A DNA stretch of 64,000 nucleotides. Origin: a virus. The DNA is taken from IMG/VR virus record IMGVR_UViG_3300036818_000105, positions 60,492 to 124,491 of that record. One strand, written 5' to 3'. Under the pieces are notes generated by a model. The model was not told the origin of the DNA and made no database searches. It was given only the letters and a program-made list of their open reading frames with translations. How positions within the stretch are numbered: position 1 is the first letter of the stretch; every line of letters starts with the position of its first letter. This document shows positions 211 through 58,314 of this stretch, piece after piece. The position numbers were made by a program, and so were the translations under genes.

Positions 211-2205
211 ATGACCGTCACTGCCCGGCCTAAGCCCGTGATTGCGGCCCCTGTCGCCCCGCCTCCGGCCCCGCCCCGCCGCCGCGGCATGACCCCGCTG
301 ACCCCGATGCGGGTGCAAACCGCGAAGTCGATGAGCAGGCTCGCCGACCACCTGCAGAAGGACAGCCCGGACCTGCCCGCGCACCAGCACCTGCGCGACG
401 CGGCGAGGACTCTCCGGGCCGGGAACGAGGAGGCGTCGCAGCGGCACCTGCGCGCGGCCATGTTCTCCCTCACCCCGCAGAGCTTGATGCGGAACGGCCA
501 GCACACCGACGACGCGCACCTCGCGGCACGGCAGGCCATGCACGGGCTTCACCGGCATCTCCTGCTGGTGAAGGACATCAGCGATGTCGCGGCGAGGAAC
601 CAGGCGGCTATCCGGCGGGACTCCTACGACGACGACTCCTCCTCCCCGCCCCCCCTGACCTCCCCGGTGCGAGCCGGCCCGAACGCGGGGTACGGTCCCG
701 GTGCGCTGGCGCAGAAGCCGGCCGTCCGGCAGCCACCGGGGAACCAGGCGCTGAACGCCCCGGCGAGGGCGGGAACAGGAAAGCCGGACCCCAACGTTGC
801 CGACCCGGTCGGGCCGCAGCCGAGGGGATCGAAGCAGTTCGCGTACGGGTGGGATGACCTGTCGGCAGTTGTGGAGCTGGCGAGCCGCCCGAAAGTCACT
901 GAGCTGAGCGCCGCTTCCCGTCTCAAGGCACATGACACCGCGTCGGCTACCGCGCACCGGACCGCGTCCGAGCACGCGAAGATGGACGAGGCGCGCAACG
1001 CGCACGGCGAGTTCGCCAAGGTCGGCGTAGCGGACCTCGTGCTGCACCATGACGGCACGGTGGGAAGCAAGAAGACCAAGGCCGCGATCGGCAGCCTGGC
1101 CCATGAGGACGGTAAGTGGGCCGCGACCCACGCTGACGGGACCGTCACTAAGCACGCCACCAAGCAGGCCGCCCTCGCGGCGATAGTCACCCGCCACAAC
1201 AAGGCCGGCAAGGCGGCGGCGATCGCGGCCCCGGGGAAGCCTGCAACGGCCGCCGTCCCTCCTGACTCGCACCCGGCCGGCGATCTCGCCGCGCCGGGCA
1301 AGCCAGCCGCGGCGAAGGCGGGGCCGGCACCGCAGGCACCCGCCCCGGCGGCCGCGAAGGTGCCCATCGTGCACGCGGCCGACCTCACTGTCCACAAGGA
1401 CGGGTCGGTTACCAGCAAGAAAACCGGCGCCCAGGTCGGCGCGATCAGCAAGGCCGGGGCGGGTTACAGCGCCACGCACGCTGACGGCACGGTCACCCAG
1501 CACGCGACGAAGGTCGCTGCCGTCAAGGCCGTCGTGACCAGCCACAACAAGGCGGCCAAGGGCGCGGCAGCCGGGAATGCCGGCGCCTCCTCGCTAAAGC
1601 CGAAGCCGTCAGCCCCGGCAGCGGCGGCAAAGGCCGCCGCCGCGCAGCCGCCGCAGCCGAAGCTGTCCCAGGCGGAGAAGCGGCGGCTCACCGGTATCTG
1701 GTCCGTCTCGTACCGGTACTCAGGCAAGTCGGGCGGGGCAGGCAAGGAAGGCCAGGATTTCACTGACGAACTGCACCGGCTGCTGTCCACGAACAAGCCG
1801 CCGGACGTATGCGGGAAGGGCTGCCAGGAAGCGCACAAGTTCCTGTCCATGGTCGACCAGGATGCCACCGTGCAGCACAAGGAACTGCGGCGCGGCATCA
1901 CGCTGGACGCCGCGGACGCGAAGCGGATGTTCACCCCGGGCAAGACCATGGACATGCCAGCCGCGTCATGGACAACCAAGGCCTCTACCGCAGTGCAGTT
2001 CTCGAAAGGCGACGCGGGGCCGGGAAAAACGAAGGTCATCCTGCACACGGCGCCGCCGGCGAAAGGCCTGGACATAGCCGGCATGTCGAATTACCCGACG
2101 GAAGCCGAAGTGGTCACCGGCGGCCGGTACTCGGTGGACTCGGTGAAGACCGTGAAGGGAGTCATGCACGTGTACGTGACCCAGGGGGACTTCAGTGCTC
2201 ACTAA
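211..2205 (+). CDS. Head-associated multidomain protein with C-terminal ADP-ribosyltransferase (R-S-E, VIP2/Alt-like) domain
   Basis: C-terminus has LRRG...ASWTT...AVQFS...GLDIAGMSNYPTEAEVV (R, S-x-T, E-x-E); duplicated ~59-aa HADGTVT domain; located in the head module. Confidence 0.75.
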   Translation: MTVTARPKPVIAAPVAPPPAPPRRRGMTPLTPMRVQTAKSMSRLADHLQKDSPDLPAHQHLRDAARTLRAGNEEASQRHLRAAMFSLTPQSLMRNGQHTDDAHLAARQAMHGLHRHLLLVKDISDVAARNQAAIRRDSYDDDSSSPPPLTSPVRAGPNAGYGPGALAQKPAVRQPPGNQALNAPARAGTGKPDPNVADPVGPQPRGSKQFAYGWDDLSAVVELASRPKVTELSAASRLKAHDTASATAHRTASEHAKMDEARNAHGEFAKVGVADLVLHHDGTVGSKKTKAAIGSLAHEDGKWAATHADGTVTKHATKQAALAAIVTRHNKAGKAAAIAAPGKPATAAVPPDSHPAGDLAAPGKPAAAKAGPAPQAPAPAAAKVPIVHAADLTVHKDGSVTSKKTGAQVGAISKAGAGYSATHADGTVTQHATKVAAVKAVVTSHNKAAKGAAAGNAGASSLKPKPSAPAAAAKAAAAQPPQPKLSQAEKRRLTGIWSVSYRYSGKSGGAGKEGQDFTDELHRLLSTNKPPDVCGKGCQEAHKFLSMVDQDATVQHKELRRGITLDAADAKRMFTPGKTMDMPAASWTTKASTAVQFSKGDAGPGKTKVILHTAPPAKGLDIAGMSNYPTEAEVVTGGRYSVDSVKTVKGVMHVYVTQGDFSAH

Positions 2206-3715
2206 ATCAGGACTGCCCGGCTGGTTCCCGGAGGACTTCAAGACCGACCCGGCACTGCTGGCGGCGTTCGAGGACGACGCAGAGTGGCACGCGACGGGCA
2301 GGAAGCAGGACGGCCACGCGCATGCCCGCACCTGGGATGAGCTCGCCGCCGTCATCGAGCTGTCGGCCAGGACGGCCGCACTTGAGGTGACCCCGGCCCC
2401 GTACGGCAAGCCAGGCGGCAAGGGCCTGTATGACGTGAAGGGGCTCAGTCACACCCCTTACTTCGAGCAGGTCGTCAAGGCGCTGCGCGGGCGCGGCATG
2501 GACAAGGGCAAGGCCTCAGCGGTCGCGTACGGGGCGCTGCGGAAGTGGGCGGCGGGCGGCGGCAAGGTCCATCCCGAAGTCCGCGCTGCGGCCACCGCCG
2601 CACTGGCCGGGGAGAAGGCGATCGGCGCGTCCGCTAAGGCGGTCCACGGGCACGCCAACCGGCCGCGCCGTGTCATTGACCTCGACTGGGCGGCGTGGGA
2701 CGCCGGCCACGGCGAGGCGTCGGTTAAAGCCCACGACACGGCCAGCGCCACGGCGAGCAGGGACGCGAAGGCGAAGATGGCGGCGGACCACCTCCACGCG
2801 GCAGCGGACCAGGCGGACCGGAAGTTCCCGTCCGCCAGCGCGGGCAGCGACATCCACGCGGCCGCCGACTCGTTCTCCGCCGGCGACGCGCAGGGGGCGC
2901 ACCAGCACCTCGCCGACGCCCGCTCGAAGCTGAGGGGCGCGAGCGAGGCCAAGGGAAAGGTCCCCGGCCGCGATCCCGTCGCCAATGACTTCAGCGGCCT
3001 CGACAGCACCCTGAAGCAGGGCCAGGGCCAGGCGCAGATGATGGCCCAGCAGCAGGATGACGACGCGAAGGCGGCAGCGAAGATGGCGAAGAAGGCGGCG
3101 AGGGCGCAGAACCACGCGGTGACGTGGGCTGACGTGGCGAGGGTGGTCGAGCTGGCCGCTAACCCGGCCCAGCCCAGGGTTGCCTCCGGGAGCACAGGGG
3201 CGGGGCAGTTCACGTCCGGGGCCAGCACCGCCCCGGCGGCCGCGCCGCCCCCGGCCGGCGGGAAGAGCGTCGCCAGCCAGACGGCCAGCGCCACCGCCAA
3301 GGCGACGATCGCCAAGAAGGCGCAGCAGAAGGCGGCGCTGATGAAGACGGCGGCGCAGGCCCGTGCTAAGGCCGACGCCCTCGAAGCGCAGATGCACACG
3401 CTGAAGCAGGAACTGGCGAGCGCGTCCGGGGCGACGTCCAGCGGCCAGTCCGGCAGCACCACGTCCGCCGGCAGTTCCACGACCAGTTCCGGCGCCTCCA
3501 CCACGGCGAGCACCGCCCCTGCCACGGCCAGTACGGCGGCGGCGACTCCTGCGGCGAGCACGACGGCTGCCGCCCCGGCAGCCAGCACGAGCACCCCGGC
3601 GCTGACGACAGCCCAGACCGCGCAGATCACCGCCCAGATCGGCCAGCTCACCACGCAGATCCAGGCGTACCAGAAGGTGATCCAGCAGGCGACTGCGCAA
3701 GCGGCGAAGCTGTAG
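2195..3715 (+). CDS. Ala-rich head-associated protein
   Basis: Overlaps the upstream stop; shares KAHDTASATA, W-x-D/E-x4-V/I-E-L motifs and a helical HQHL domain with 211..2205. Confidence 0.7.
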   Translation: MLTKSGLPGWFPEDFKTDPALLAAFEDDAEWHATGRKQDGHAHARTWDELAAVIELSARTAALEVTPAPYGKPGGKGLYDVKGLSHTPYFEQVVKALRGRGMDKGKASAVAYGALRKWAAGGGKVHPEVRAAATAALAGEKAIGASAKAVHGHANRPRRVIDLDWAAWDAGHGEASVKAHDTASATASRDAKAKMAADHLHAAADQADRKFPSASAGSDIHAAADSFSAGDAQGAHQHLADARSKLRGASEAKGKVPGRDPVANDFSGLDSTLKQGQGQAQMMAQQQDDDAKAAAKMAKKAARAQNHAVTWADVARVVELAANPAQPRVASGSTGAGQFTSGASTAPAAAPPPAGGKSVASQTASATAKATIAKKAQQKAALMKTAAQARAKADALEAQMHTLKQELASASGATSSGQSGSTTSAGSSTTSSGASTTASTAPATASTAAATPAASTTAAAPAASTSTPALTTAQTAQITAQIGQLTTQIQAYQKVIQQATAQAAKL

Positions 3716-5804: not shown

Positions 5805-7469
5805 ATGAGCAAGAACAACCGGGGAACCGTCCTCGCGGCCGTATCTAGCCCGGTCGCCAGCGAGGCTCGCCCGTCAGCGTCTACCGCTCTCGGCGCGCCG
5901 GGGTACGCCCGCGACGTGCAGTCAGAGCTGTTCCTTCTCGCCGCGTGCAACCTGCCCGGCGAGAAGGCGTTCCACGAGGGCACCGACGAGCGGGTGAAGC
6001 GGTTCCGTGACCTGGTGCGCGAGGCCTCGGCGGTCAGCCCGGACTGGACCGCCGCCCTGCTCCCGTACCTGCGCGGCCCCGGTAACCTGCGGCTCGCGCC
6101 CGTGGAGGCGGCGGCCGAGTACGCGTGGGCGCGGCGGGACGAGGCGGGAACGGGCCGCGAGGTCAGTAACCCGCCCAAGGCAACCGTCCGGCAGGTTGTC
6201 AACTCAGTGCTTCAGCGCGCCGACGAGCCCGGCGAGATCATCGCCTACTGGCTGGCCCGCTACGGCCGGAAGATGCCGATCGGCTTCAAGCGCGGTGTCG
6301 CCGACGCGGTACTGCGCCTCTACACCGAATGGTCGCTCCTGAAGTACGACACCCGCGAGGCCGCGGTGCGCTTCGGTGACGTGATCGAGCTGGTGCAGCC
6401 GCGGTACGTCAGCAAGGAGTACGGGACCTGGCGGGACGCCCTCTACAAGCACGCGATCGAGCGGCGCCACAACCGGGACAACCCGATCCCTGAGCCGCTG
6501 GCGATGATCCGGGCGAACGCGGCGCTGAACGCGGCGGCGGCCACCGACCCGAGGGTGCTGCTCGACACGGAGCGGCTGCTGGCCGCTGGGATGACGTGGC
6601 AGAACGCGCTGTCCATGGCGGGCGACAAGGTCGACAAGGGCAAGCTGTGGTCAGCCCTGGCCCCGATCATGGGCTACGACGCGCTGCGGAAGAACCTCCG
6701 CAACTTCGACCAGTCCGGCATGCCGGACGAGGTGGCCGAGGCGGTCGCGGCGCGGCTGTGCGACCCGGAGCAGGTGGCGAAGTCGCGCCTCTTCCCGTTC
6801 CGGTTCCTGTCCGCCTACCGCGCGGCCCCCTCGCTGCGGTGGGCGTACCCGCTGGAGAAGGCATTGAACGCGTCACTGTCGAACGTCCCCGCACTCAAGG
6901 GGCGGACGCTCGTGCTCGTGGACCGCTCGCCGTCGATGTGGGACCAGAAGTTCAGCGAGCACTCCGACATGCCGTGGGCGGACGCCGCGGCCTTGTTCGG
7001 CGCGGCGATCGCGCTGCGGGCCGAGCAGGCGGACCTCGTGGAGTTCTGGGGGATGTCGCGGCCGGTGCCGTTCCAGGCGGCCGACTCGGTGCTGAAGCTC
7101 ACGGAGCGGTTCAGCTTCCAGCCCGCGCCGGGCGGGACCGACATCCCCTCGGCGGTCGTCGCCCACCTGCGGCCCGATCACGCGCGGGTGGTCATCGTCA
7201 CCGACGAGCAGACGCAGGCCGGCTACCTGCCGTCGAACATGCGCTACCAGGGCGGCAGGCCCCCGATGCTGATTGACGACCTGGTGCCGAAGTCCAAGCC
7301 GCTCTACATGTGGAACTTCGGCGGTTACAAGCACGGCGCGGCGCCGTCCGGGACGGGAAACCGGGTCACGCTCGGCGGCTTGTCGGACTCCGCCTTCCGC
7401 CTTATCCCCATGCTTGAGGCGGGACGTGAATGCGACTGGAACGCCCTCTTCGGCGTCACTGCGGACTAA
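5805..7469 (+). CDS. rsr: Ro60/TROVE domain RNA-binding protein (Rsr) with C-terminal VWA domain
   Basis: SELFLLA, RADEPGE..AYW, KRGVADA, LLKYD, ALRKNLRNFD, KSRLFPFRFLSAY, VLVDRSPSM (MIDAS), GGTD, VIVTDEQ. Confidence 0.93.
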   Translation: MSKNNRGTVLAAVSSPVASEARPSASTALGAPGYARDVQSELFLLAACNLPGEKAFHEGTDERVKRFRDLVREASAVSPDWTAALLPYLRGPGNLRLAPVEAAAEYAWARRDEAGTGREVSNPPKATVRQVVNSVLQRADEPGEIIAYWLARYGRKMPIGFKRGVADAVLRLYTEWSLLKYDTREAAVRFGDVIELVQPRYVSKEYGTWRDALYKHAIERRHNRDNPIPEPLAMIRANAALNAAAATDPRVLLDTERLLAAGMTWQNALSMAGDKVDKGKLWSALAPIMGYDALRKNLRNFDQSGMPDEVAEAVAARLCDPEQVAKSRLFPFRFLSAYRAAPSLRWAYPLEKALNASLSNVPALKGRTLVLVDRSPSMWDQKFSEHSDMPWADAAALFGAAIALRAEQADLVEFWGMSRPVPFQAADSVLKLTERFSFQPAPGGTDIPSAVVAHLRPDHARVVIVTDEQTQAGYLPSNMRYQGGRPPMLIDDLVPKSKPLYMWNFGGYKHGAAPSGTGNRVTLGGLSDSAFRLIPMLEAGRECDWNALFGVTAD

Positions 7470-7602: not shown

Positions 7603-7649
7603 TGCACGTGCATCCGCTCCGTGCATCTGCACGTGCATGAGGCTATGCT
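7603..7649 (+). promoter_or_regulatory. Putative late promoter/operator, copy 1
   Basis: TGCACGTGCAT-N7-GTGCATCTGCACGTGCATGAG-N2-TATGCT; same architecture at 31360-31406. Confidence 0.7.
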
Positions 7650-7689
7650 TGCCGCTAGGCAGGGGTGCCAGCCGTTTGAGAGGACGGAC

Positions 7690-8655
7690 GTGGGCACATC
7701 CCTGGACTTCGCCGCACCCAAGCTCGGCAGCGGCACCCGGTTCAAGAAGCTGTCCGCGACCCTCGCCGCCCGCGGCGCCCACGACCCCGACGCCCTCGCG
7801 GCCTACATCGGCCGGAAGAAGTACGGCTCGGGCATGGGCAAGCTCTCCCACCACAAGTCCCTCGCCGGCGACGACCTCGGCATCTACCTGTCCGAGACCA
7901 CGAAGGACGACCAGGGCAAGACCCTGACCTGCCCGGAGTGCAACTACTCCGGCCCCGCGAACCGCTTCGGTGCCTCCGGCGCGTCCCTCCAGAGCGCCCC
8001 CGGTGACCTCCGCACCCCCGCGCCCGGCACCGGCGGAGTCCGCAAGGGCGTGCCGCTGACGGTCAAGTCCGGCGCCGCCCACGCCCTCGCCAACGGCACC
8101 CGCGGCGCGGTCGAGCTCGCCACCGGCACGGCCCGCCGCCCCATCCGCGGCCCCATGGACGTGCTCGCCTCCCGCGCGGAGGACGGTGTCGCGGTCCTCA
8201 GGCACCGCAACGGCGGCGCGACGATCGCCACCCTCCGCAAGACCGACGGCGGCAAGTGGGTCGCCAACGTCAACGGCCGTGACCTCGAGCCCCGCGACCA
8301 CCAGCGCACCGCCCTCATGGAAGCGGTAGGCCAGTGGAACGGGTCCATCAGGGGCGCCGTCCGCCCGCAGGAGGCCCCTCTCCAGCACGAGCCCGTGCAG
8401 ACGCCGCTGATGGCCGAGTACGGCATCCCCGCGATGCGCTCCGCCGCGTTCGCCACCCCGACCACGGGAGCGGGCGACGGGCCGAGGATGACCAGCGCTG
8501 ACGGCGGGGGCACCGACGAGAACGGCCTGACCGCCAAGGGCCAGGGCATCTACAAGAAGCTGCTCGCCAAGGGCTTCCCCCAGGCCAGGGCGCTGAGCTT
8601 CGCGAAGAACAGCCAGAAGACGAAGGCCGGCACGTTCGGCAAGGTCGCGGCCTGA
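7690..8655 (+). CDS. Head-module hypothetical protein (CxxC)
   Basis: GTG start after GAGGA; DPDALAAYIGRKKYG motif; upstream of the protease. Confidence 0.7.
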   Translation: MGTSLDFAAPKLGSGTRFKKLSATLAARGAHDPDALAAYIGRKKYGSGMGKLSHHKSLAGDDLGIYLSETTKDDQGKTLTCPECNYSGPANRFGASGASLQSAPGDLRTPAPGTGGVRKGVPLTVKSGAAHALANGTRGAVELATGTARRPIRGPMDVLASRAEDGVAVLRHRNGGATIATLRKTDGGKWVANVNGRDLEPRDHQRTALMEAVGQWNGSIRGAVRPQEAPLQHEPVQTPLMAEYGIPAMRSAAFATPTTGAGDGPRMTSADGGGTDENGLTAKGQGIYKKLLAKGFPQARALSFAKNSQKTKAGTFGKVAA

Positions 8656-8930
8656 TGACCACGCTCACGCACACCTTCACGCGGACCCACATCGTCATCA
8701 CGCCCGCGAACCCCTTCCTCGCCTGCCGGACGTGCCGTAAGCGCGTCGAGGCGTTCCACGATGACGAGTGCGGCTGCGATGAGAGCGGCGGCCCGCTGCT
8801 CCTGATGCCGTGCTTCCACCGCGGCGAGTACGACGACCTGTGCCCGTCATGGAGCCCGGTCGACGGCTGCACCTGCCGGGAAGTGCTCGGCCGCGTCCCG
8901 CACCCGGCAGAACTGCCGAGGACCGCCTGA
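8655..8930 (+). CDS. Cys-rich small hypothetical protein
   Basis: TGATG coupling; several Cys pairs. Confidence 0.5.
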   Translation: MTTLTHTFTRTHIVITPANPFLACRTCRKRVEAFHDDECGCDESGGPLLLMPCFHRGEYDDLCPSWSPVDGCTCREVLGRVPHPAELPRTA

Positions 8931-8931
8931 C

Positions 8932-10212
8932 ATGACCCTCGCCGTCCTGACCCCGTTCTCGACCGCTGGCGCGGTAGAGCTCGGCAACCGCGTGTGGCGC
9001 AAGAAAGTGCTGCCGGTCGGCGACGTCGAGTACAAGGGCCGCACCCTGCACTTCAACCGCGACTACCTCGGCAAGCTCGTCACCGCGTTCCAGAACCGCG
9101 CCTACGACCAGGTGCCGTTTCAGCTCGCTGACGCGCAGAACACCCACACCAACGACCCGGAGCGCACTCGCGGCGAGATCGAGTCGATGGAGCTCGGCGA
9201 CGACGGCCTGTACATCACGGCCCGGCTCACGCCCGAGGGCGAGGCGGTCCTGTCCGCCAACCCGAAGCTCGGCGTGAGCGCCCGGATCGTCGAGGGCTAC
9301 GACCGCAGCGACGGCAGGCACTTCCCGGCCGCCGTCCAGCACGTCCTGGGCACCCTTGACCCCCGCATCCCCGGCCTCGGCGCGTGGACGGCGATTGAGG
9401 CGGCGTCCCCGCAGCCCGACCAGGTGATCGACCTGTCCGGCTTCTCATTCTCCGGCGGGGAGACTGACGGCTCCCTGACGGACCCCGCTCCCAACGGCCA
9501 AAGGACGGACGGCATGGCGGATCTGAATGCCCTGAACGACGAGCAGAAGGCCCGGCTCGCGAAGCTCCTGTCCCTGCCCGACGACGCCCTCGACGCCCTC
9601 GCGAACGGCGGCATGGTGATGACCCCCGACGAGCTGGAGGCCCTCACCGCCCCCGACGCCGGAGACGACGACGCGGACGGCGAGGACGCGCTTGCCGCCG
9701 AGATCGACGCGATGACCGACGAGGAGCTCGCCGGGCTGGAAGCCGAGTTCGAGACCGAGACCGAGGGCGAGACCCCGGGTTACGCGCCAGAGGGGGAGCC
9801 CGTGGCTGCAGGACTGTCCGCCGAGGCCCAGTTCAGTATCGACCTCGCCAACGCCAGGGCGGACGAGACCGCCCGGGAGCTGGCCGTCGTCACCGCGCGG
9901 CTGCGCGAGGAGGACTACCAGGCGGAGCGGCGCCGCCTCGCGGATACCGGGGTGCCCCCGTACATCACGGAACTGGCGAGGCCGCTCCTTGAGGGCGCCG
10001 GCCACGCGGTGGAGCTGAGTAACGGCAAGACGGTCGACGCCGGGGCGATCATGCGCCGGGTCCTGACCGAGTACGCCCGCCAGGCCCGCCTCCTCGACCT
10101 CGACGTCGAGCTCGGCAGCCCGATGGACGAGCCGGAAGAGGCCGTCACCGAGCAGCAGGCCCAGTCCCGTCAGGACACCGTCAGCAAGTTCAAGTCGATG
10201 ACCGGCCTCTGA
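8932..10212 (+). CDS. Mu gpI-like prohead protease / scaffold
   Basis: N-terminal protease-like domain (H in THTNDP, GLY, GVSARI, HVLGTLDPRIPGL) plus acidic helical scaffold tail; precedes decoration and capsid genes. Confidence 0.8.
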   Translation: MTLAVLTPFSTAGAVELGNRVWRKKVLPVGDVEYKGRTLHFNRDYLGKLVTAFQNRAYDQVPFQLADAQNTHTNDPERTRGEIESMELGDDGLYITARLTPEGEAVLSANPKLGVSARIVEGYDRSDGRHFPAAVQHVLGTLDPRIPGLGAWTAIEAASPQPDQVIDLSGFSFSGGETDGSLTDPAPNGQRTDGMADLNALNDEQKARLAKLLSLPDDALDALANGGMVMTPDELEALTAPDAGDDDADGEDALAAEIDAMTDEELAGLEAEFETETEGETPGYAPEGEPVAAGLSAEAQFSIDLANARADETARELAVVTARLREEDYQAERRRLADTGVPPYITELARPLLEGAGHAVELSNGKTVDAGAIMRRVLTEYARQARLLDLDVELGSPMDEPEEAVTEQQAQSRQDTVSKFKSMTGL

Positions 10213-27804: not shown

Positions 27805-30060
27805 GTGTCCTTCACCGCCGTAGGCAGCAACCCGCCCACCACCTCGACCACGTCCAACTCGTTCTCCCTGGCCCCGCACGCCGCCGGCGACTTCATCCTG
27901 CTTGGCGTCCTCGCCGGGTTCACCACGGGCAGCGCCGCCGACTACGCCACCTCGGTCAGCAGCAGCAACGGCAACGTCACCTGGTCCGTCCTCGTCGCCC
28001 ACACCGCGTTCGGCACGGGCGGCACCGGCGCGCAGACGGTCTTCATCGGCAAGGTCAACAGCACCACCAGCGGCACCCAGACGATCGGGTTCAACGCGGG
28101 CAGCCCGACCTGCCGCATCGCCTGGCAGGAGTTCAGCAACACCCTCGGGTACAGCGCCGTCACCCTCGACGGGTCCCCCGGCACCATAGACGTCGGGTCG
28201 AGCGCCCGCTTCCCCTCGCTCACGCCCGGCCACGGCAGCGGCGAGCTGTACTGGGGCTACCTCTGGGACAACGGCACCGCCGCCGCGGGCAGCACCTCCG
28301 GGTACTCGTACTACTTCGACGCCAACGGCAACCCGATGGCCGTCAACACGGCCTGCGGGACGGGCGCGCAGGCCCCCAACCTCGGGGACACCGGCGACGG
28401 CGTCGCCGGCATAGCCGTCCTGCTCTACGAGGCGGTCACCACCGTCAGCGGCGCTGCCGCCCTGTCCGGGTCGGGCACGCTCGGGGCGGGCGGGCGCGTG
28501 GCGGTGCCGGGCGCGGCCACGCTGGCGGGCGCCGGCTCCCTCGGGGCCTCCCCGGCTGTCGCCATACCGGGGTCCGTGACCCTGCTCGGCACAGGGTCCC
28601 TGACCGCCGGGGGAAACGTCTCCGCGCCAGGGCAGGCGTCCGCCAGCCTGTTCGGGAGCGGGTCGCTGTCCGCGGCTGGCTATGCCGGCTGGCAGCCCGC
28701 TGTCACCCTGTCCGGCACGGGCACTATCGGCGCGCAGTACACGGGGGTCACCCTCCAGGGCGTTACCCTCGCCGGGGCCGGCGCGCTCACCGCCGGCGGG
28801 TCGGCAGGGCTCAAGTTCACCTCAGGGCTGGCCGGGGCCGGGTTCCTGTCCATCCCGCAGGTCAGCGGCGGCCTGGTCCCCGGCGTCGGCGGGGCGGCCG
28901 CGCCGCAGGCGCTGCCCGGGTCAAGCCAGGTCGCCGTCGCGCCGCAGGGATCGGGCAACTGGCAGTGGCTCGGCACGCTCGGGCAGGTCACCGCCCTGAC
29001 CTACAGCTACGTGTGCCCCGGCGGGTGCGACCAGCTCACCATGACGATCATGGTCCCGGCCGCCTACCGGACGCAGCTGTTCAACCCCGGGTGGCAGGTG
29101 AAAGTCATCCGCGGGGGGCACCGGGTCTGGTACGGGAAGCTAGACGAGCCGCAGCCGTCAGCCAGCGGCTGGACGCTGACCGCGGTCGGGGCCGGGAACC
29201 TCTCGCAGAACTTCGTCGCCTACTATTCCGTGGACGACGTGTGGCCCGAAGACGAGCCCGATGAGATCATCAACCGGGCGATCAGCCGGGGACTCCCGTG
29301 GGTCAACCCAGGGCTCAACAGCGGGCCGTACGCCTCGCAGTACTGGATGGGGCAGGCCACCGACCCCGGCTCGCAGAACGTCTCGGCGTTCCTGAACTTG
29401 ATCTGCACGCGCGGCGGCCTGCTGTGGTACGTCAACAGCCAGCCGGGCGGGAGCTACGGCGGGAACAACCTGTCCGTCTTCCCGCTGCCCACCGTGCCGA
29501 ACCGGCTGCTGGTGTGCACGACCCCCGTGGCGCGGACGCTCGGCGGCTACGTGAACACGTTGTTCATAAGGTACGAATCGGTCGCTGACAACACAACGAC
29601 CAACGTGGCCGCCTCATATGACGTCGTGACCGCGATTAACTCTCAGTCGGTGACCGCTCACGGAACGCTAGAGTCGTACCTGGATCTAAGCGACGCCGGC
29701 CAGTTGTCCTCCGCAGCCGCCCAAGCTGTCGGCAATTCCATACTGAGCATCTACGAGGCCGCCAGCTTCGCCGGGCCGTTCACTGTCTCCTACGGACAGC
29801 TGCTCAACATGGGCGGCCAGCCAGTGGATATCGCCTGTGACCAGGCCGGTTCTATGGTGAAGTTGGTTCTAACCGACTTTGCGTACGGCGGATCGGTCAC
29901 ACCGAACATTCCCGTCGCATTCATCGTAGGGAGCTACGCATATGACGACTTCGCCCAAACTGCGACAATTACTCCGTATCAGTCCCTGAACGAAAGTCTT
30001 AGCGGGTTGCTCTCCATGACGAGCACCGTCATGACTCCACTCACCGTGGCTTCCACCTAG
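27805..30060 (+). CDS. Minor tail protein (beta domain + LSGSG repeats + hub-like domain)
   Basis: A.L.G.G.L repeats; YSYVCPGGC...VWYG.LDEP hub-like motif. Confidence 0.7.
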   Translation: MSFTAVGSNPPTTSTTSNSFSLAPHAAGDFILLGVLAGFTTGSAADYATSVSSSNGNVTWSVLVAHTAFGTGGTGAQTVFIGKVNSTTSGTQTIGFNAGSPTCRIAWQEFSNTLGYSAVTLDGSPGTIDVGSSARFPSLTPGHGSGELYWGYLWDNGTAAAGSTSGYSYYFDANGNPMAVNTACGTGAQAPNLGDTGDGVAGIAVLLYEAVTTVSGAAALSGSGTLGAGGRVAVPGAATLAGAGSLGASPAVAIPGSVTLLGTGSLTAGGNVSAPGQASASLFGSGSLSAAGYAGWQPAVTLSGTGTIGAQYTGVTLQGVTLAGAGALTAGGSAGLKFTSGLAGAGFLSIPQVSGGLVPGVGGAAAPQALPGSSQVAVAPQGSGNWQWLGTLGQVTALTYSYVCPGGCDQLTMTIMVPAAYRTQLFNPGWQVKVIRGGHRVWYGKLDEPQPSASGWTLTAVGAGNLSQNFVAYYSVDDVWPEDEPDEIINRAISRGLPWVNPGLNSGPYASQYWMGQATDPGSQNVSAFLNLICTRGGLLWYVNSQPGGSYGGNNLSVFPLPTVPNRLLVCTTPVARTLGGYVNTLFIRYESVADNTTTNVAASYDVVTAINSQSVTAHGTLESYLDLSDAGQLSSAAAQAVGNSILSIYEAASFAGPFTVSYGQLLNMGGQPVDIACDQAGSMVKLVLTDFAYGGSVTPNIPVAFIVGSYAYDDFAQTATITPYQSLNESLSGLLSMTSTVMTPLTVAST

Positions 30061-31010
30061 AAGAGCCTGCCATCCTGCTGCTCCTGCAGCCGCTTGCGAT
30101 CCTTTGCCCGGCCGCACTTCCTGCTGCAGTAGAAGCTTCTCCCGATCGTCTTAGACTGGTACTCGCCCCCGCAGACGGTGCAGGTGCGGGTTTCAGGCTC
30201 GCGGCGGTTCCATGTCTCAGCCACAATGGCGCTCATTGCCTGCCTGTGCTCAGGTGTCCCCCAGCCGCTCTCCTCGGCGTGCCACGCGTCCAGCACGGCC
30301 TGCGGAGGGCCGGGGTCGAAGTTGGTGAACGCGAACTCGCCGTACGCCTCCCGGGCGGCCAGGTCGTATGCGTAGGCGGCGCTAAGCTCGCTGGAGAAGA
30401 CGCCAAGATGGCGGTTGCCGAGGTGCGCGATCCAGCGGCCGCTCGCCTTGACCAGCGCAACGCCCTTGTACTGCGAGATGCCGCTTTGCCTCATCCGGCG
30501 GTTTGCCGCGTTCTGCGCCGGCGTGGCCAGCCTGAGGTTTGATCGACGATTGTCGATTCCGTTGCCGTTGACGTGGTCCACCCACGGCTGACCCATGATC
30601 AGGACGTGCATCAGGAGAGTTGGCGCCTTGCCGCCGTGGTCGCGACGCGACAGCGAGGTAAGCGCGTACGGCCCGGACACATGATGCCCGTTCTTCCACA
30701 CCTCGCGGACGTTCCAGCGGTACGGGGCGACTAGCTCGAAATCTTCCTCGTCGATCAGGGCCACCCGGCCCGCGGCGACCTTGCCGTACAGGGGTATCTC
30801 GCCGCGGTCCGCCGAGGCGAGGTTGATCTCCCAGCGCCAGCAGCCGCACGACTTCGTGTGCCCCGAACGCAGCTTCGCGAGATCGACGACTTTCTGCTTG
30901 CTGCATTCACACCGGCACAGCATCGCCCGGCGGCCCCCGGCGGTGGTCGTCTCCTCGATCACCGTCAGCCGCCCGAAGACGGTGCCGGGCGGGACGTCTA
31001 TGCTTCGCAT
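30057..31010 (-). CDS. Free-standing HNH-AP2 homing endonuclease
   Basis: FGRLTV..CRCEC..LRSGHTKSCGC; VDHVNGNGIDNRRSNLR; SQYKGV...W.A...HLG.F...AA.AYD.AA. Confidence 0.88.
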   Translation of the reverse strand: MRSIDVPPGTVFGRLTVIEETTTAGGRRAMLCRCECSKQKVVDLAKLRSGHTKSCGCWRWEINLASADRGEIPLYGKVAAGRVALIDEEDFELVAPYRWNVREVWKNGHHVSGPYALTSLSRRDHGGKAPTLLMHVLIMGQPWVDHVNGNGIDNRRSNLRLATPAQNAANRRMRQSGISQYKGVALVKASGRWIAHLGNRHLGVFSSELSAAYAYDLAAREAYGEFAFTNFDPGPPQAVLDAWHAEESGWGTPEHRQAMSAIVAETWNRREPETRTCTVCGGEYQSKTIGRSFYCSRKCGRAKDRKRLQEQQDGRLF

Positions 31011-37401: not shown

Positions 37402-38070
37402 ATGGCAGCACGAGTAATGGAGCCGGGCCCGAGCAGCCGCCGCGCCGCGGCGAACCTCCGGCGCATCCGGCAAGAGCGCGGGCTCTCCTACGCGGAGCTC
37501 GCCCGGCGGCTGGCGAAGACCGGGCACCCCATCCTCGACACGGGCCTCCTCAAGATCGAGAAGGGGGAAAGGCGCATCGACGTAGACGACCTCGCCGCCC
37601 TGGCCGTCGCCCTTGACGTGACGCCCAACCGGCTGCTGCTGCCCGAGATGGACATCGAGCACGCGGCGGACCCGGCCCGGCTCACGCCCTCCGTGCAGGA
37701 GACTCCCCCGGCACTCTGGGCGTGGGCGACCGGGGAGGCGCCGCTCGGCCAGTCGCCCGCCACGGCTGCCGCGGAAAGCGATGAGCGGGCCCGGGAGGTC
37801 GTTTTCAGCCGGGAGAACAGGCCGCACCGCTGGGCGGTGCCGCCGCCTCCCCGCACGGCCGGGCAGAGCGTGACCCTGACGGGCCTGGCCGCGCTCGTCG
37901 CCGACGCGTTCCGGCAGGGGATCAGCACCGACGGGATCCGCTCGGCGGTCGAGGGCGGAATCGTCGCGGCCCTCTCCTCATTCGCGCCCGCGAGCGGGGC
38001 AACCAAGATAGAGGTCACCAGCGACGGCAAGGTCACCGTGCGGCTGAACTACGCAGGGGAGGCCGGGTGA
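37402..38070 (+). CDS. XRE-family immunity repressor
   Basis: NLRRIRQERGLSYAELA...KIEKGERRIDVDDL.ALA.ALDV.PN.LL; coupled to the integrase. Confidence 0.85.
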   Translation: MAARVMEPGPSSRRAAANLRRIRQERGLSYAELARRLAKTGHPILDTGLLKIEKGERRIDVDDLAALAVALDVTPNRLLLPEMDIEHAADPARLTPSVQETPPALWAWATGEAPLGQSPATAAAESDERAREVVFSRENRPHRWAVPPPPRTAGQSVTLTGLAALVADAFRQGISTDGIRSAVEGGIVAALSSFAPASGATKIEVTSDGKVTVRLNYAGEAG

Positions 38071-39401
38071 CGATCTACGACAGGTGGCACAAGTCCCACC
38101 CCGGGCCGGACGAGGAAGAGTGCCGCAGGCACCGGATGGTCCCGGCCGCCCAGCACCTCCGGGGCGACCGCTGGCAGGTCCGCTGGCGCGACCTGAACGG
38201 GAAGCAGAAGAAGAAGAACTTCGCCAAGAAGGAGGGCGGCAACCCTGACCTCCACGCGGACGCGTTCGAGGCGAAGATCGCGGCCGAGCTCGACGCGGGG
38301 ACCTACGCCGACCCCAGGAGCGGCGACTCGACGTTCGAGGAGTACGCCGAGGCGTGGCGCGCGGCCCGGACCCACGGCGAGACGACCAGCGTCGGCGTGG
38401 AGTACCAGTTCCGGCTCCACGTTTACGCCGACCCGGGCAACCCTGGCCGCACCAGGCGCCACGGCGGCCCGGCGCTCGGGCACAACAAGCTCCGGGACCT
38501 GGCCAGGCGCCCGAGCCTGTGCCAGAACTGGATCGCCGGCATGAAGCTGATGGACTCCACCAAGGTCAAGGTGATCGACCACGTCTCGGAGGTCTTCGCC
38601 GCCGCCGTGGAGGACGGCTTCATCCCGCGCAACCCGCTTCACGCCAAGTCCGTCAGCCGCCCCAAGGCACCCAGGCGGGAGCCGGACCTGCTGACGCTCC
38701 CCGAGCTAGAGGCGCTGTCGCTCGCGCTGCGCCACATGCCCGGCTGCAAGGACGGCTGCGACCAGTGCGGCCCGTCGCGGTACGAGGTACTGCCCTACCT
38801 CGGCGCGGCGACCGGCGAGCGCCAGGGCGAGATGTTCGCGATCGACGCGGACAAGGACATCGACTTCCTGCGCAAGACGCTCCACGTCCGGCGGCAGGTG
38901 AAGATCATCCACGGGAAGCAGGTCTTCGCGCCGATCAAGAACGACAAGGTCCACTCCGTTCCGCTGACGGACGAGGACTGCGTGATGCTGTCGGAGTACA
39001 TACGGGCCTACCCTCCGGAGAAGGTGACGCTCCCCTGGGTCAGGGCCGGCGGCGGCCCGGTGACGTTCACGCTGCTGCTGTCGCGCGGCCCGGGGCTGCC
39101 GATGCACCGCAAGATGGTCAACGGCCGGTGGAAGGCGGCCCTGCGCCGCGCGGGCATCGCCGCGGACCGCTATCACATGATGCACATCACGCGCCACATA
39201 TTCGTGTCCGCGTGCCTGTCGGCCGGGATCAGCGTCCGGGCGGTCGCGGAGTTCATCGGCGACACCGAGGTAACCGTCCAGGCGACCTACTCGCACATGA
39301 TGCCGGACGACCGCGACCGCGCCCGGAGGGCCAAGGGGCAGTTCTTCGCCCGCCCGGACGAGGGGCACTTGAGTGCGCCTCATCTTTCAAAAGTGCCCTA
39401 G
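38067..39401 (+). CDS. int: Tyrosine integrase
   Basis: TGERQGE (R), IKND (K), HITRH, G..VRAVAEFIGD, TYSH (Y). Confidence 0.92.
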   Translation: MTIYDRWHKSHPGPDEEECRRHRMVPAAQHLRGDRWQVRWRDLNGKQKKKNFAKKEGGNPDLHADAFEAKIAAELDAGTYADPRSGDSTFEEYAEAWRAARTHGETTSVGVEYQFRLHVYADPGNPGRTRRHGGPALGHNKLRDLARRPSLCQNWIAGMKLMDSTKVKVIDHVSEVFAAAVEDGFIPRNPLHAKSVSRPKAPRREPDLLTLPELEALSLALRHMPGCKDGCDQCGPSRYEVLPYLGAATGERQGEMFAIDADKDIDFLRKTLHVRRQVKIIHGKQVFAPIKNDKVHSVPLTDEDCVMLSEYIRAYPPEKVTLPWVRAGGGPVTFTLLLSRGPGLPMHRKMVNGRWKAALRRAGIAADRYHMMHITRHIFVSACLSAGISVRAVAEFIGDTEVTVQATYSHMMPDDRDRARRAKGQFFARPDEGHLSAPHLSKVP

Positions 39402-39708
39402 ATGTGCCCTCCGGGCACCTTCGGGAGCCGTGAGGGACCTCCGGGACGGGACGGGAAGGCTATCCGGTCAGCCGAGCTCCAGGCCAACGGGGCAGGTCAC
39501 GCCGGTGCTGTGATCCGGGCAGTAGCCGTGCGGGACCTTGTAGAGGTACTGCTGGTGGTAGTCCTCGGCGAAGTAGCACCAGCCGGGGAGCCTTGCTGGT
39601 CGCGCTCTCGGGTGAGGCGTATGACCTGGTCAAAGGCTTAAAGATCTTTCCCGGCCCTTCCCGATCGACAATGACTCTTCCCGACCTCATGTGACCCAGA
39701 TGTGCCCT
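39391..39708. other. attP region with arm-type repeats
   Basis: AAGTGCCCTAGATGTGCCCT (39391-39410) and ATGTGACCCAGATGTGCCCT (39689-39708) flank a host-gene fragment just after int. Confidence 0.75.
39468..39575 (-). pseudogene. msrA: 3' fragment of methionine sulfoxide reductase A carried in attP
   Basis: Translates as [35 protein letters not shown], the conserved MsrA C-terminus. Confidence 0.88.
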
Positions 39709-39871: not shown

Positions 39872-40126
39872 TCAGAACGGCATGTCGCCCGGCGCCGGCT
39901 CCCCGTACTTCTCCCTCGCCGCGTCCGCGCTCGTCCCGGTCGCCTCGCCGATCGACTCCCAGCCGATGCCGAGCATCCGCGCGTAACGGACGATGGCCAG
40001 CTCCCGCCCGTCAAGCTCGGCGCGGGCCGCCGGTATCCCGCGCACAAGGGTCATGTGCCGCTCCCGCTCGCGCGCGACGAGCTCAGCGTCCTCGTCGGCA
40101 AAGTAGAAGTCCCCGCAACGGCCCAT
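39872..40126 (-). CDS. Small HTH-like protein
   Basis: VRYARMLGIGWESIGEATGTS..AAREKYG. Confidence 0.6.
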   Translation of the reverse strand: MGRCGDFYFADEDAELVARERERHMTLVRGIPAARAELDGRELAIVRYARMLGIGWESIGEATGTSADAAREKYGEPAPGDMPF

Positions 40127-40193
40127 GCCTCATGCTAGCCGCGTCATGCGAACTAGCGTGAGTAGTGAGCATGTGCCCCGCTACGCTTGTCCC

Positions 40194-40364
40194 GTGACCA
40201 CCGAGCTGCTTGTCCCGGCCTCCGCCGTGGCGGACCTCCGCATGATCCCCCTGTCGGAGATGCCAGCCCTGGGCCTTGACGACCTGGGAAGGATGATCGA
40301 GAGGGTGCTGCCGTACGATACCAGTCTCCGGGTCCGGGAGCGGACGTTCCAGTCGTCGATTTAG
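40194..40364 (+). CDS. FxSxx-COOH (FxsA-like) RiPP precursor peptide, leaderless
   Basis: DL..IPLSEM......L...IERVL leader and C-terminal FQSSI*; -10 TACGCT 6 nt before the GTG. Confidence 0.72.
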   Translation: MTTELLVPASAVADLRMIPLSEMPALGLDDLGRMIERVLPYDTSLRVRERTFQSSI

Positions 40365-40445
40365 AGGGTCAGGAACCCGTCACGGTGACGGATTGAATCC
40401 GCCTTTCCCTCACAGGCTCACCGGGCCGCAGCTCCCAGCTAACTC

Positions 40446-40712
40446 CTAGTCCGGCCGGGACTTGAAGCTGACGGCCGGGGCGACGCGGAGCCTCCCCGTC
40501 ATCGCGAGGGCGACCAGGCCGTCGACCCAGTTCCCCTCACCGATGACCTCAACGCCGAGAATGGTTCCGTCCGCGCCGGTGTCGACCCAGATGCTCTCGG
40601 TTGCCTCGATCGTGCGGGCGACGCTGCCGTCCGGTATGCCGCCGGGGGCGAGGATGGCGTAGCTTGCCCCGGCCCCGGGGTCATGCTCGGCGCCGGGGTA
40701 GCTGACGTTCAT
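40446..40712 (-). CDS. DUF2283-like protein
   Basis: HDP.A.ASY..L...VARTIE....WVD..ADG.ILGVEVI; ORF is open further upstream. Confidence 0.6.
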   Translation of the reverse strand: MNVSYPGAEHDPGAGASYAILAPGGIPDGSVARTIEATESIWVDTGADGTILGVEVIGEGNWVDGLVALAMTGRLRVAPAVSFKSRPD

Positions 40713-41023
40713 GAAGACGAGCCTAGGGCGCGAGTTGACAGGGTGGCAGATGAAGGTGCACCGCTCGCCGCACGACGGCGACCCGTTGCACCCGTGCTCG
40801 CAGTCGCTCAGGTCGTAGAGCGGGCCGAGGGTGGCGAGGTGCTCGAGGTCGGGCTCCGGGTGCAGTTCCCCGTCGATCTCCGCAGCGAGCTCGCGGGCCT
40901 CGAGGCGCTTCGCCTTCCGCGTGCCGACCGATCCGCCTCCGGAGCAGTCCGGGCCGGGAGGGAGTCCCGAACGGGTACCGGGACAGCAACCCGGCGTTTG
41001 GTAACGGCCGAGGAGACGGGCCA

Positions 41024-41194
41024 TCAGTCATCGCCCCACTGGCCGACGTCGTGGCGGCTGATGCGCTTTCCCTTCCGCGAGGGGAAGGCCTTGCGCGCCG
41101 GGTAGGGCATCCGCTCGGCGTCGCCGTTGCCCGCGATCTTGTGGGGCTTGCACATCGGGCAGCCCTTCCAGCGGCGGTTGCTCGTGCGCGCCAT
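41024..41194 (-). CDS. Small basic CxxCKPHK protein
   Basis: GGAGG + ATG; GCPMCKPHK..GN. Confidence 0.6.
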   Translation of the reverse strand: MARTSNRRWKGCPMCKPHKIAGNGDAERMPYPARKAFPSRKGKRISRHDVGQWGDD

Positions 41195-56267: not shown

Positions 56268-57037
56268 GACACCTCCCGAAGTTTCCGACGTACGGGACGC
56301 CCCGCCGCCACGTCGGCTTCTGCTTCCAGGCGAGCGGCAATTGCGGCTTCTTTTGCCTCAAACAAACCCAGGTATGTGCACTTGCGGTTGACCATGATCT
56401 GAGCGCGCCAAGGCTTGGGGGCCGATATCGACGGCTGGTAGACCACTCCGCGAACGCCGGAGGTGTTGTTGCGGCGGAGCGGCATCGGCGCGTCCGGGTC
56501 TACTTGCCGGGCCGCTTCGAGTTCGTCCCGCTGGCACAGTTCCGGCCTGGCCGCGTAGGCATACGCGCCTTGCGCTTCCAGGGCTACGGCGACGTAGGCG
56601 GCAGCAGCCTCTTCCTCGGAGCTAAAGATGCCGAGATAACGGTTCTTGCCGTCGACCTTTATGCACGCCTGCCATTTCCGGCGCTGCTTGTGCCAGGTGA
56701 CCCCCTTGTACTGCGACGAGTGGCCAGTCTGTGAACGCCGGTTGTACCCGTTCTGGACGGTGGTTGCCAGCCGAAGGTTCGCCCGTCGATTGTCTAGGCC
56801 GTCCCCGTTGGCGTGGTCTGTGATGGGATGGCCCGTGATGAGCTTGTGCATGAGAACGCTCGTCTTGCGGCCACCTTGCCGGGTTGCTGCTGCGGCGTAC
56901 GGGCCGTCAACGCGCCCGCCCGGGCGCTGAACTTCCCAGGCGTGCCAGCGGTAGCGCGATACCAGTTCATAGTCGGCGTCATCAATCAGGGCCACTCGGT
57001 CCGCAGCCCTCTTGCCGTGCAAGGGGATGGCTATCAC
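56264..57037 (-). CDS. HNH endonuclease with two AP2-like domains
   Basis: DHANGDGLDNRRANLR; SQYKGV.W...WQA.I; NTSGVRGV...W.AQI...LG.F. Confidence 0.88.
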   Translation of the reverse strand: MIAIPLHGKRAADRVALIDDADYELVSRYRWHAWEVQRPGGRVDGPYAAAATRQGGRKTSVLMHKLITGHPITDHANGDGLDNRRANLRLATTVQNGYNRRSQTGHSSQYKGVTWHKQRRKWQACIKVDGKNRYLGIFSSEEEAAAAYVAVALEAQGAYAYAARPELCQRDELEAARQVDPDAPMPLRRNNTSGVRGVVYQPSISAPKPWRAQIMVNRKCTYLGLFEAKEAAIAARLEAEADVAAGRPVRRKLREVS

Positions 57038-58314
57038 GAGGCAGTCGCCTCCCCGATTCCATCGAACAGGGAGCCCTGGCCTTCAGGGACCGGCGGGGGC
57101 TTGGGAACGCACATCGCCTTAGCGCGCTCTGCGGGGTCGCTGGCGCGCCAGCGGGCAAGGCGGCAGTAGTCGGCCGAGCGGTCGATGCCTATCCCGATGC
57201 GGCCATACGCGGACGCCACGAGCGCGGTTGTTCCCGTTCCTGAAAACGGGTCGACGACGATGGCCGGGCGCGTCGGGGCGTCAGGCTGCGGGCAGGCGCA
57301 GGCGTAGCCGGTGATGGCGGCCAGGCGTGTCGCGGATGACCCGTACGGCAAGGCGCTGTCGCGGCGGTTGTTGCCGGGATTCCGGTCAGCCCGGCTACCG
57401 GGCCGGTCATGCGACAGACGCGGCCTGTCCAGTCGGGCATATCCTGCCGTCTCGGTGACCGGCCGCCGTCCCTCGCCGCACTCCGCGCAGATCCCGGACG
57501 GCGACCAGCCGAGGATGACCCGTCGCGGGAGTTCCATCGGGAACGCGGCGAAGTGATCCACGCCGAGGTGCGCGGGGACGGACAGCGGCTGCGACGGGAT
57601 CTCCCAGACGGAGCCGGGCAGCTTGCCGAGGGGATGTCCGTCCACGCCTGCCTCGTCGCGCCGGGCCGTCGACCATGCCTGCCTGAGCTGCCCCTGCCTC
57701 GGCGTAAGGTCTTCGGGGCGACCGCCCGGTCGACGCTGCGGGCGCATGGTGTGCGGTTCGCGGATCTCGTCAACCGCCGCGAAGTAGCGGGACTGCTTCG
57801 TGAAGTGGAACACCTGCTCGTGCGAGCGGCGCACGCGGTCGGTGACGCTCTCGGGGAGGCCGTTCGGCTTGTCCCAGACGACCTCCGCCCGCAGGATCAG
57901 GCCGAGGTCGTCGACGCAGCCGAGCGCGTACCGCCACGGCAGGCCAATGAGGGACTTGGGCCGTACGCCGGTATCTGCGGGGCCTTTGCGCCGCGGCCTC
58001 TCCGGGCGGCTCGCCAGGCGCCCCTCCGTGCCCGCGGAGTGGCCAGGTCCACTGCGCTCGGCGTACTTGTCGCCGAGGTTGACGAACAGTGACCCCTCGG
58101 GCTTCAGCACGCGCAGCCATTCCCGCGTGCAGTCCAGCAGCGCCGCGACGTACTCGCGAGGCGTCTCCTCGCTGCCGATCTGCCCGTCGTAGTGCCCGCC
58201 GTTGTCGGAATACGACCGCAGGCCCCAGTACGGCGGCGACGTGACGATCAGGTCCACGCTCTCGTCCGCCACCGGCAGGCTCGCCGCGTCCCCCCGCAGG
58301 ATGACCACGCTCAC
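57034..58314 (-). CDS. DNA methyltransferase (N4-C/N6-A, beta class)
   Basis: VDLIVTSPPYW, RVLKPEGS, HFAAFP, DPFSGTGTT. Confidence 0.92.
   Translation of the reverse strand: MSVVILRGDAASLPVADESVDLIVTSPPYWGLRSYSDNGGHYDGQIGSEETPREYVAALLDCTREWLRVLKPEGSLFVNLGDKYAERSGPGHSAGTEGRLASRPERPRRKGPADTGVRPKSLIGLPWRYALGCVDDLGLILRAEVVWDKPNGLPESVTDRVRRSHEQVFHFTKQSRYFAAVDEIREPHTMRPQRRPGGRPEDLTPRQGQLRQAWSTARRDEAGVDGHPLGKLPGSVWEIPSQPLSVPAHLGVDHFAAFPMELPRRVILGWSPSGICAECGEGRRPVTETAGYARLDRPRLSHDRPGSRADRNPGNNRRDSALPYGSSATRLAAITGYACACPQPDAPTRPAIVVDPFSGTGTTALVASAYGRIGIGIDRSADYCRLARWRASDPAERAKAMCVPKPPPVPEGQGSLFDGIGEATAS

Follow-up and report, generated by a model that had tools for sequence, protein, structure and literature searches.

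A free-standing gene for an FxsA-like precursor peptide in the lysogeny region of a temperate soil phage

The window analysed in this work, a stretch of 64,000 nucleotides to which all positions below refer, comprises bases 60492-124491 of the virus record IMGVR_UViG_3300036818_000105. This record is 124,491 bp long and rated 100% complete; it has direct terminal repeats, and an exact repeat of 127 bp was confirmed at its ends. With genes for a tape measure protein, a capsid protein (PF25209), a tyrosine integrase and an XRE-type helix-turn-helix (HTH) protein, the replicon is a temperate soil actinobacterial phage. Its lineage is poorly sampled; a blastn search with 8 kb around the peptide gene described below against deposited phages returned four matches, each covering 1% of the query. 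The plus-strand block of the window encodes a 554-aa protein with a TROVE (Ro60-like) domain (5805-7466, plus strand; PF05731, E 5e-12) and, upstream of the capsid gene (289-3712 and 7621-10209, plus strand), four proteins of 638, 506, 344 and 426 aa that have no Pfam match; those of 638, 506 and 426 aa have no PHROGs match either. Just downstream of the tape-measure gene, a gene for an HNH endonuclease (30060-31010, minus strand) runs counter to the plus-strand genes around it, and an N6/N4 DNA methylase gene (57037-58314, minus strand) is part of the minus-strand block.

The lysogeny region contains a repressor-like HTH gene (37417-38067) near the gene for the tyrosine integrase (38067-39401, plus strand; phrog_1 integrase, E 5.8e-40). 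Just after the integrase gene, 100 non-coding bp (39480-39579, minus strand) form an attP-like fragment with the last ~34 codons of msrA. This conserved stretch was also considered as an RNA gene, an assignment that was rejected since the segment is the 3' end of msrA, and a tRNA scan and an Rfam search around the peptide gene and the att-like loci of the hosts found nothing. The presence of the msrA 3' end at the integrase indicates that the phage was captured in its excised form and that it should integrate at the 3' end of the host msrA gene; upon integration, the attP sequence likely rebuilds this end. Next comes an 84-aa HTH-like gene (39872-40126, minus strand; phrog_686 HTH E 0.0075, Myb-like E 0.11), possibly encoding an excisionase or a small regulator. 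It is divergent from the peptide gene and separated from it by 67 bp. On the other side, the peptide gene is convergent with a minus-strand block (40446-63695), the last gene of which encodes a 192-aa protein (40446-41024, minus strand) with a weak match to DUF2283 (E 0.1).

The peptide gene itself occupies positions 40194-40364 of the plus strand: It starts with the GTG at 40194, encodes 56 amino acids with the C-terminal end FQSSI and stops with the TAG at 40364. Its GC contents by codon position (0.65/0.44/0.88) follow a coding-type pattern and resemble those of the neighbouring genes. An upstream extension to the ATG at 40125 gave values of 0.61/0.61/0.57 and was rejected as not coding-like. 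Moreover, the 56-aa form was chosen by a simple GC-frame gene caller, which called 217 genes in the genome, and the N-terminus is common to this peptide and three of its four short homologues, i. e. those of 54-56 aa. A preliminary description of this DNA, made from the sequence alone, had announced a 56-aa ORF with the end FQSSI, oriented against the early operon. The ORF is indeed present where it had been placed and runs against the minus-strand block; the start coordinate given at the time, 40182, is the first base of a hexamer TACGCT and not the start codon.

This hexamer (40182-40187, plus strand), read from the sequence as a -10-like TANNNT element, ends 6 nt before the GTG. No Shine-Dalgarno sequence lies between the hexamer and the start codon, so that a leaderless transcript is possible. 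TACGCT recurs with identical spacing in a second phage fragment, L059, and TAGGAT stands at the same alignment columns in a third, L008 (see below). A scan of the surroundings of the peptide gene for the sigma-70 consensus found no promoter. The -10 element of its own that had been proposed for the gene is a candidate, with a TANNNT hexamer in all three phages. A short hairpin with a 6-bp stem follows the stop codon (40377-40391, plus strand) and is a weak terminator candidate: a scan for consensus terminators at the peptide gene found none, and the hairpins after the stop codons of the three phage copies fold no better than shuffled sequences (z -1.15 for the window, -1.59 and +0.65). Viewed as a moron, the gene has a -10-like hexamer that is kept in three phages amid varying neighbours, and the promoter and terminator scans as well as the folding gave blank results. 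No RNA sequencing run is listed as containing the phage, and one soil DNA run contains it with a small share.

The peptide is a homologue of the FxsA precursors, judged by the comparison of their sequences. Positions 1-44 of the FxSxx-COOH precursor model TIGR04268 align end to end on residues 13-56, the alignment ending at the stop codon. The score, 17.7 bits (E 0.003), is under the curated cut-off of 28 bits. The model match that the preliminary description had called for was thus obtained in its extent but not in its score. A sub-threshold score does not exclude homology in this family, because peptides encoded directly upstream of fxsB also fail: that of the cellular locus L004 reaches 24.7 bits, and that of L007 has no match at all. 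The peptide of the phage fragment L008 scores 25.4 bits. A phmmer search of 1.84 billion representative proteins gave 11 matches at E values up to 0.001. Four of them are peptides of 54-59 aa, which share 54-60% identity with the phage peptide along their entire length (E 3e-7 to 5e-4); the TIGR04268 cut-off of 28 bits is passed by three of them, at 33.7-36.4 bits. The peptide of locus L002, which adjoins fxsB, is 66% identical to the phage peptide. A word-index protein search matched only the window peptide itself.

An alignment of ten sequences has 11 invariant columns (A13, D14, L15, P19, L20, L26, R37, P40, F52, Q53 and S54), and all of them are kept in the window peptide. They include the conserved leader motif A13-D-L-x-x-I-P-L20 (40230-40253, plus strand), which is also engaged in the docking model described below, and the core tail F52-Q-S-S-I56 with its free C-terminus (40347-40361, plus strand), in which F52, Q53 and S54 are invariant. 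The tail FQSSI is directly followed by TAG, as is typical of FxSxx peptides; on its own, an F-x-S-x-x-stop tail is not significant, as it occurs in 4 of the 1779 open frames of at least 40 aa in this genome. The idea of an FxsA-like leader joined to a terminal FQSSI is borne out by the homology, which extends over the whole leader and core. The F-Q-S of the core corresponds to the aromatic-X-X motif expected for a cyclophane; triceptides are defined by a radical SAM enzyme that makes an aromatic-to-C-beta cross-link on such a motif (PMC11499958, accessible text). A signal sequence is not apparent in the peptide. The window copy deviates from the family by a glutamate at the nearly invariant G36, a methionine at D18 and a charged RVRERT stretch before the core. 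It is the most diverged copy, with a branch length of 0.72 as compared to a median of 0.21, and its divergence and sub-threshold score could reflect relaxed constraint.

Compared to the members of TIGR04268, which are encoded in the fxsA-fxsB(H)-fxsC-fxsT clusters of Actinomycetota, the phage peptide belongs to the same length class, shares the leader ADL..IPL...LG.D.LGR.I.RVLP and the free C-terminus F-Q-S-S-I, and is 54-66% identical to cluster-encoded members. Unlike them, it is carried by a phage, is substituted at G36 and D18 and remains below the cut-off of the model, and no gene for a maturase, a TIR protein or a ParA-TPR protein accompanies it anywhere in the replicon. SjiA (NF040585, FXSXX-COOH cyclophane-modified RiPP) belongs to the same superfamily: two close relatives of the window peptide, P0008 and the L002 peptide, have weak C-terminal matches to this model, which at 18-22 bits are far under the 75 bits of its cut-off. 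The window peptide itself is not matched, and the subfamily is a different one.

In cells, this peptide subtype is part of a cluster. Of the 15 non-phage loci, all have fxsB directly downstream of the peptide gene (8/8 in genomes, 7/7 in metagenomes), and fxsC (TIR-like) and then fxsT (ParA-TPR) follow wherever the flanks allow, in agreement with the textbook arrangement that the preliminary description had invoked. The eight loci in species-representative genomes (L002-L007, L031 and L033) are all from Actinomycetota; in each of them fxsB starts 15-35 bp after the stop codon of the peptide gene, and in L003 fxsB is broken. In L004, the peptide gene is followed by genes for FxsB (TIGR04269, 552 bits) fused to an HExxH domain (TIGR04267, 79 bits), the TIR-like FxsC (NF040588, 209 bits) and the Fxs TPR protein, which has 1302 aa and a KGGVGR ParA-like ATPase domain (NF040586, 1012 bits). 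According to gene calling, the remaining genome loci have the same order. Counted over all metagenome loci, fxsB is directly downstream in seven of eight, and two with long flanks also carry fxsC. In L006 (14132-18129), the ParA-TPR gene seems to be fragmented, with an 82-aa N-terminal piece followed by unrelated short ORFs in the gene calls; it is intact in L005, a near-identical locus in another genome.

It is common for genomes of this group to have more than one fxs locus, with peptides of other subtypes (tails such as ...AFNSSI); some of the copies are broken. In the probable host group (contigs C51, C39 and C31 of genome G001; G041; G033; contig C5 of G003), there are up to 7 FxsB matches per genome, several of them split or with stop codons, and each intact locus that was inspected has its own peptide subtype. 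Such gain, diversification and decay of loci is a pattern typical of conflict systems. According to the accessible text of a review (PMC10114670), FxsB forms a cyclophane on its precursor. In a preprint of 2026 (10.64898/2026.10.19.760177), as far as its text is accessible, FxsC is assigned an active TIR domain, and FxsT a ParA domain joined to a TIR domain that is inactive. The two are predicted to form a TIR-ParA apoptosis system directed against viruses, and the FxsAB peptide is proposed to be either an alarm signal or an antiviral molecule; a role as a diffusible signal is raised as well. The same text still terms FxsC and FxsT functionally uncharacterised, the antiviral role being a prediction.

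The phage gene stands alone. The preliminary description had found no maturase and no fxsC or TPR genes in the window and had reckoned with an fxsB elsewhere in the phage; the absence extends to the whole 124,491-bp genome, which contains neither fxsB (TIGR04269) nor a Radical_SAM domain (PF04055), and neither FxsC (NF040588) nor the Fxs TPR protein (NF040586). As a positive control, the fxsB search succeeded in 5/5 cellular genomes. For FxsC, the NF040588 search matched 0/14 control genomes, which makes the blank result weak by itself, even though this model gives 209 bits on L004. Thus, the phage gene has no fxsB next to it and no fxsC and fxsT in the same locus.

The orphan gene is retained in related phages. 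Two more copies without fxsB downstream were found, L008 and L059, which lie amid different neighbouring genes. L008 is an 18-kb viral fragment, 14% complete, that is mosaically colinear with the window (blastn blocks of 69-88% identity). Its 59-aa copy corresponds in relative position to that of the window, with minus-strand genes following it and a different integrase preceding it; a 259-aa gene between the integrase and the peptide gene of L008 (8909-9688 of that fragment, plus strand) is absent from the window. L059 is a metagenome contig of 1.9 kb; next to its 54-aa copy, on the downstream side, lies a convergent gene, the product of which is 84% identical to that of an L008 gene. The phage copies number three in all, and those of L008 and L059 are on fragments that could hold fxsB elsewhere. 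The downstream neighbour of the peptide gene is different in all three phages, and what is conserved among them at the nucleotide level is the ORF together with the -10-like hexamer, which precedes its start by 6-7 nt.

The peptide gene is under purifying selection, as estimated from pairwise comparisons: dN/dS between phage copies is 0.30-0.68, i. e. below 1 in all three pairs, with 0.68 for the window and L008; phage-cell pairs have a median of 0.31, and cell-cell pairs one of 0.35. The GC content at third codon positions (by coordinates) is 0.88-0.92 in the phage copies and 0.75-0.90 in the cellular copies, which is no clear difference. In a tree of 14 peptides, the longest of the phage branches is that of the window copy, and the data speak neither for nor against a single origin of the phage copies (p-AU 0.50). 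Known cellular loci escaped a strict GC-codon DNA pattern, which was then relaxed; 2.9 million viral contigs, scanned twice with relaxed patterns and twice by alignment, gave no copies beyond two viral records. This number is a lower bound, since the relaxed pattern has a fixed spacer of 31 codons and misses copies with other spacers as well as other FxsA subfamilies. Three non-actinobacterial matches to the relaxed pattern and seven matches to the strict one were taken as chance; L024, which was inspected, is not an FxsA. No homologue was detected by tblastn in 50,697 deposited phage genomes, where one noise match appeared at E 9, or in 72,556 plasmids.

Several observations bear on the host. 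The msrA fragment of the phage is 94% identical to the msrA 3' end of genome G038, 93% to those of G002 and G033 and 92% to that of G001, none of the tested genomes having an exact match. The closest cellular fxsA genes are in G001 and G002, whose msrA 3' ends are 92-93% identical to the phage fragment. The FxsB relatives of these two genomes are labelled Trebonia sp. at NCBI. Among 61 relatives of G002, of which 3 are flagged unpublished, 25 have an FxsB over the cut-off. A search of five Fxs-carrying genomes found no relative of the phage capsid. Relatives of the capsid (88-95% identity) are on contigs binned to Actinospica, Mycobacterium, Streptosporangiaceae and Kineosporiaceae, so that no consistent host emerges from these four actinobacterial groups. 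A peptide alignment in four genomes with capsid relatives found nothing among the 150 first-look candidates scored per genome.

Does a cellular FxsB still recognise the phage peptide? A model of the complex of the FxsB-HExxH protein of L002 with the phage peptide, built from family alignments of 53 rows for the enzyme and 10 rows for the peptide, reached an ipSAE of 0.81 (median of three runs), whereas the best of 3 controls reached 0.00. The ipSAE mark used here is reached by 58 of 80 solved complexes and by 2 of 110 mismatched pairs, counts that are only rough as they rest on self-supplied alignments. The partner has a pLDDT of 63 or more, and 79% or more of the contacts are common to the runs. 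In the model, leader residues 7-35 and 37-40 are placed on FxsB residues 405-472 and nearby segments, a region in which Pfam has no named domain; L15 and L20 make the contacts with the lowest predicted error, and the F-Q-S of the core is not among the confidently placed residues. The model supports binding of the phage leader to FxsB-HExxH, in a test that is known to be passed by close cousins of a true partner as well.

What we have is a genuine, selected, free-standing fxsA precursor gene in the lysogeny region of a phage. The account that we prefer for it is that a host enzyme binds or matures its product, which thereby modulates the Fxs system of the host; taken as a whole, we rate this account a little short of an even chance. 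The peptide would have kept the leader that is recognised by the FxsB-HExxH maturase. In an Fxs-carrying host, this enzyme would bind the phage peptide and probably modify F52-Q-S54, and the phage could thus control the supply of a peptide that is genetically coupled to the module of FxsC (TIR) and FxsT (ParA-TPR). As to the outcome, we favour silencing over arming: the peptide itself, or its competition with the FxsA of the host, would keep the suicide or alarm module silent during infection or induction, much like a phage-encoded antitoxin or decoy. Arming fits the position of the gene about as well. In its most specific form, the idea is possible though rather unlikely: in uninfected cells, the peptide derived from the FxsA of the host would be coupled to the suicide module of FxsC and FxsT, whereas in infected or induced cells the phage FxsA would be made from a promoter that escapes the shut-off of the host, FxsB-HExxH would mature it or be occupied by it, and the module would stay silent.

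The logic proposed here has precedents. Pseudo-ToxI of phage phiTE and Dmd of T4 are phage-encoded antitoxin or decoy copies of components of host immunity, and by analogy the present phage might carry, of an abortive-infection module of its host, no more than the small part that neutralises or regulates it. In contrast to these cases, the phage part would be a RiPP precursor that needs an enzyme of the host, and an antitoxin role of FxsA is a hypothesis only. Temperate phages are also reported to carry complete bacteriocin or RiPP gene clusters with their enzymes (bioRxiv 10.1101/2020.10.01.322628, accessible text); with these the present case shares natural-product genes on a temperate phage, but here the precursor is alone. 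The preliminary description had imagined that the peptide works as a mimic or decoy towards a host Fxs system that takes part in phage conflict. This is plausible, and it has become more so because the gene is retained in three phages amid varying neighbours and is under purifying selection, because the docking model of its peptide passes the controls, and because the preprint mentioned above makes an independent prediction that FxsC and FxsT are an antiviral suicide module. A role to the benefit of the lysogen fits the data nearly as well.

Such a benefit could arise by lysogenic conversion: an extra or variant FxsA from the prophage, matured by the FxsB of the host, would arm or prime the Fxs system of the lysogen against other phages, or yield a variant signal or antibiotic peptide to the benefit of both host and prophage. 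The gene lies in the lysogeny region beside the integrase, attP and the repressor-like HTH gene (37417-38067), and a self-contained unit convergent with the lytic-side block is the usual layout of extra genes that are expressed in lysogens. The homology, the signature of selection and the docking apply equally to this scenario, and the antiviral or alarm peptide suggested in the accessible text of the preprint (10.64898/2026.10.19.760177) suits it. However, a host with its own fxsA upstream of fxsB seemingly gains little from a second precursor, and the window copy has diverged at otherwise conserved positions, and we regard this possibility as doubtful.

A different use of a matured peptide would be signalling between phages or lysogens. 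Small phage peptides in this role are exemplified by AimP of the arbitrium system of Bacillus phages, which undergoes secretion and cutting and acts together with a receptor, AimR, from the phage itself. By comparison, the FxsA-like peptide would be matured and exported by the host to give a diffusible peptide that reports infection or the density of lysogens. A small peptide gene in a lysis-lysogeny region is what the two have in common, and a diffusible role is among those considered for Fxs peptides in the preprint (10.64898/2026.10.19.760177, accessible text). Yet, no candidate for a phage-encoded receptor was recognised beside the window peptide, the neighbouring genes differ in all three phages, the peptide lacks a signal sequence, and AimP is cut rather than cross-linked. 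We consider signalling improbable.

It would be just as surprising if the gene were a mere hitch-hiker, a captured fragment of host DNA that is now functionless and slowly decaying. Its rarity (at least two viral records in 2.9 million contigs, with narrow patterns), the sub-threshold score and long branch of the window copy and the dN/dS of 0.68 between this copy and L008 would agree with decay. Against this stand a frame that is intact in three phages with replaced flanks, the preservation of all 11 invariant columns and dN/dS values below 1 in every phage pair. Moreover, the gene is not flanking host DNA that was picked up at excision, because attP derives from msrA and not from an fxs locus.

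Finally, the peptide might have been re-used as a small phage protein unrelated to Fxs, for example one that binds TPR proteins or another host target in its unmodified form. Seven of the 11 phmmer matches are long TPR-repeat proteins, which match residues 25-53 two to six times each (residues 25-49 correspond to 40266-40340). These matches rest on E36, Y41 and D42, where the window peptide differs from the other nine aligned FxsA peptides; the single stretches are weak (15-28 bits), a repeated target inflates the summed score, no match of the peptide to a Pfam TPR model appears at E values up to 1, and L008 and L059 do not have these three residues. The matches are probably chance inflated by the repeats, and a function of this kind has little to recommend it. 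The host partner FxsT is itself a TPR protein.

Returning to an FxsA precursor that acts on the Fxs system of the host, what we describe is a known peptide family in a new context, and a search of full-text literature found no paper describing a phage-borne orphan FxsA precursor. The orphan gene hints that phages tap into the Fxs system or disarm it. A phage lineage that carries the precursor gene alone is an independent natural pointer to a role of the peptide in phage-host conflict or lysogeny. If the peptide indeed depends on the maturation by a host enzyme, such RiPP precursors would be a new kind of phage accessory gene. Should it moreover act as an antitoxin or decoy, it would be the first case of a RiPP precursor from a phage that takes over a maturase of the host, and it would provide the first natural evidence for an involvement of the Fxs peptide system in antiviral immunity.
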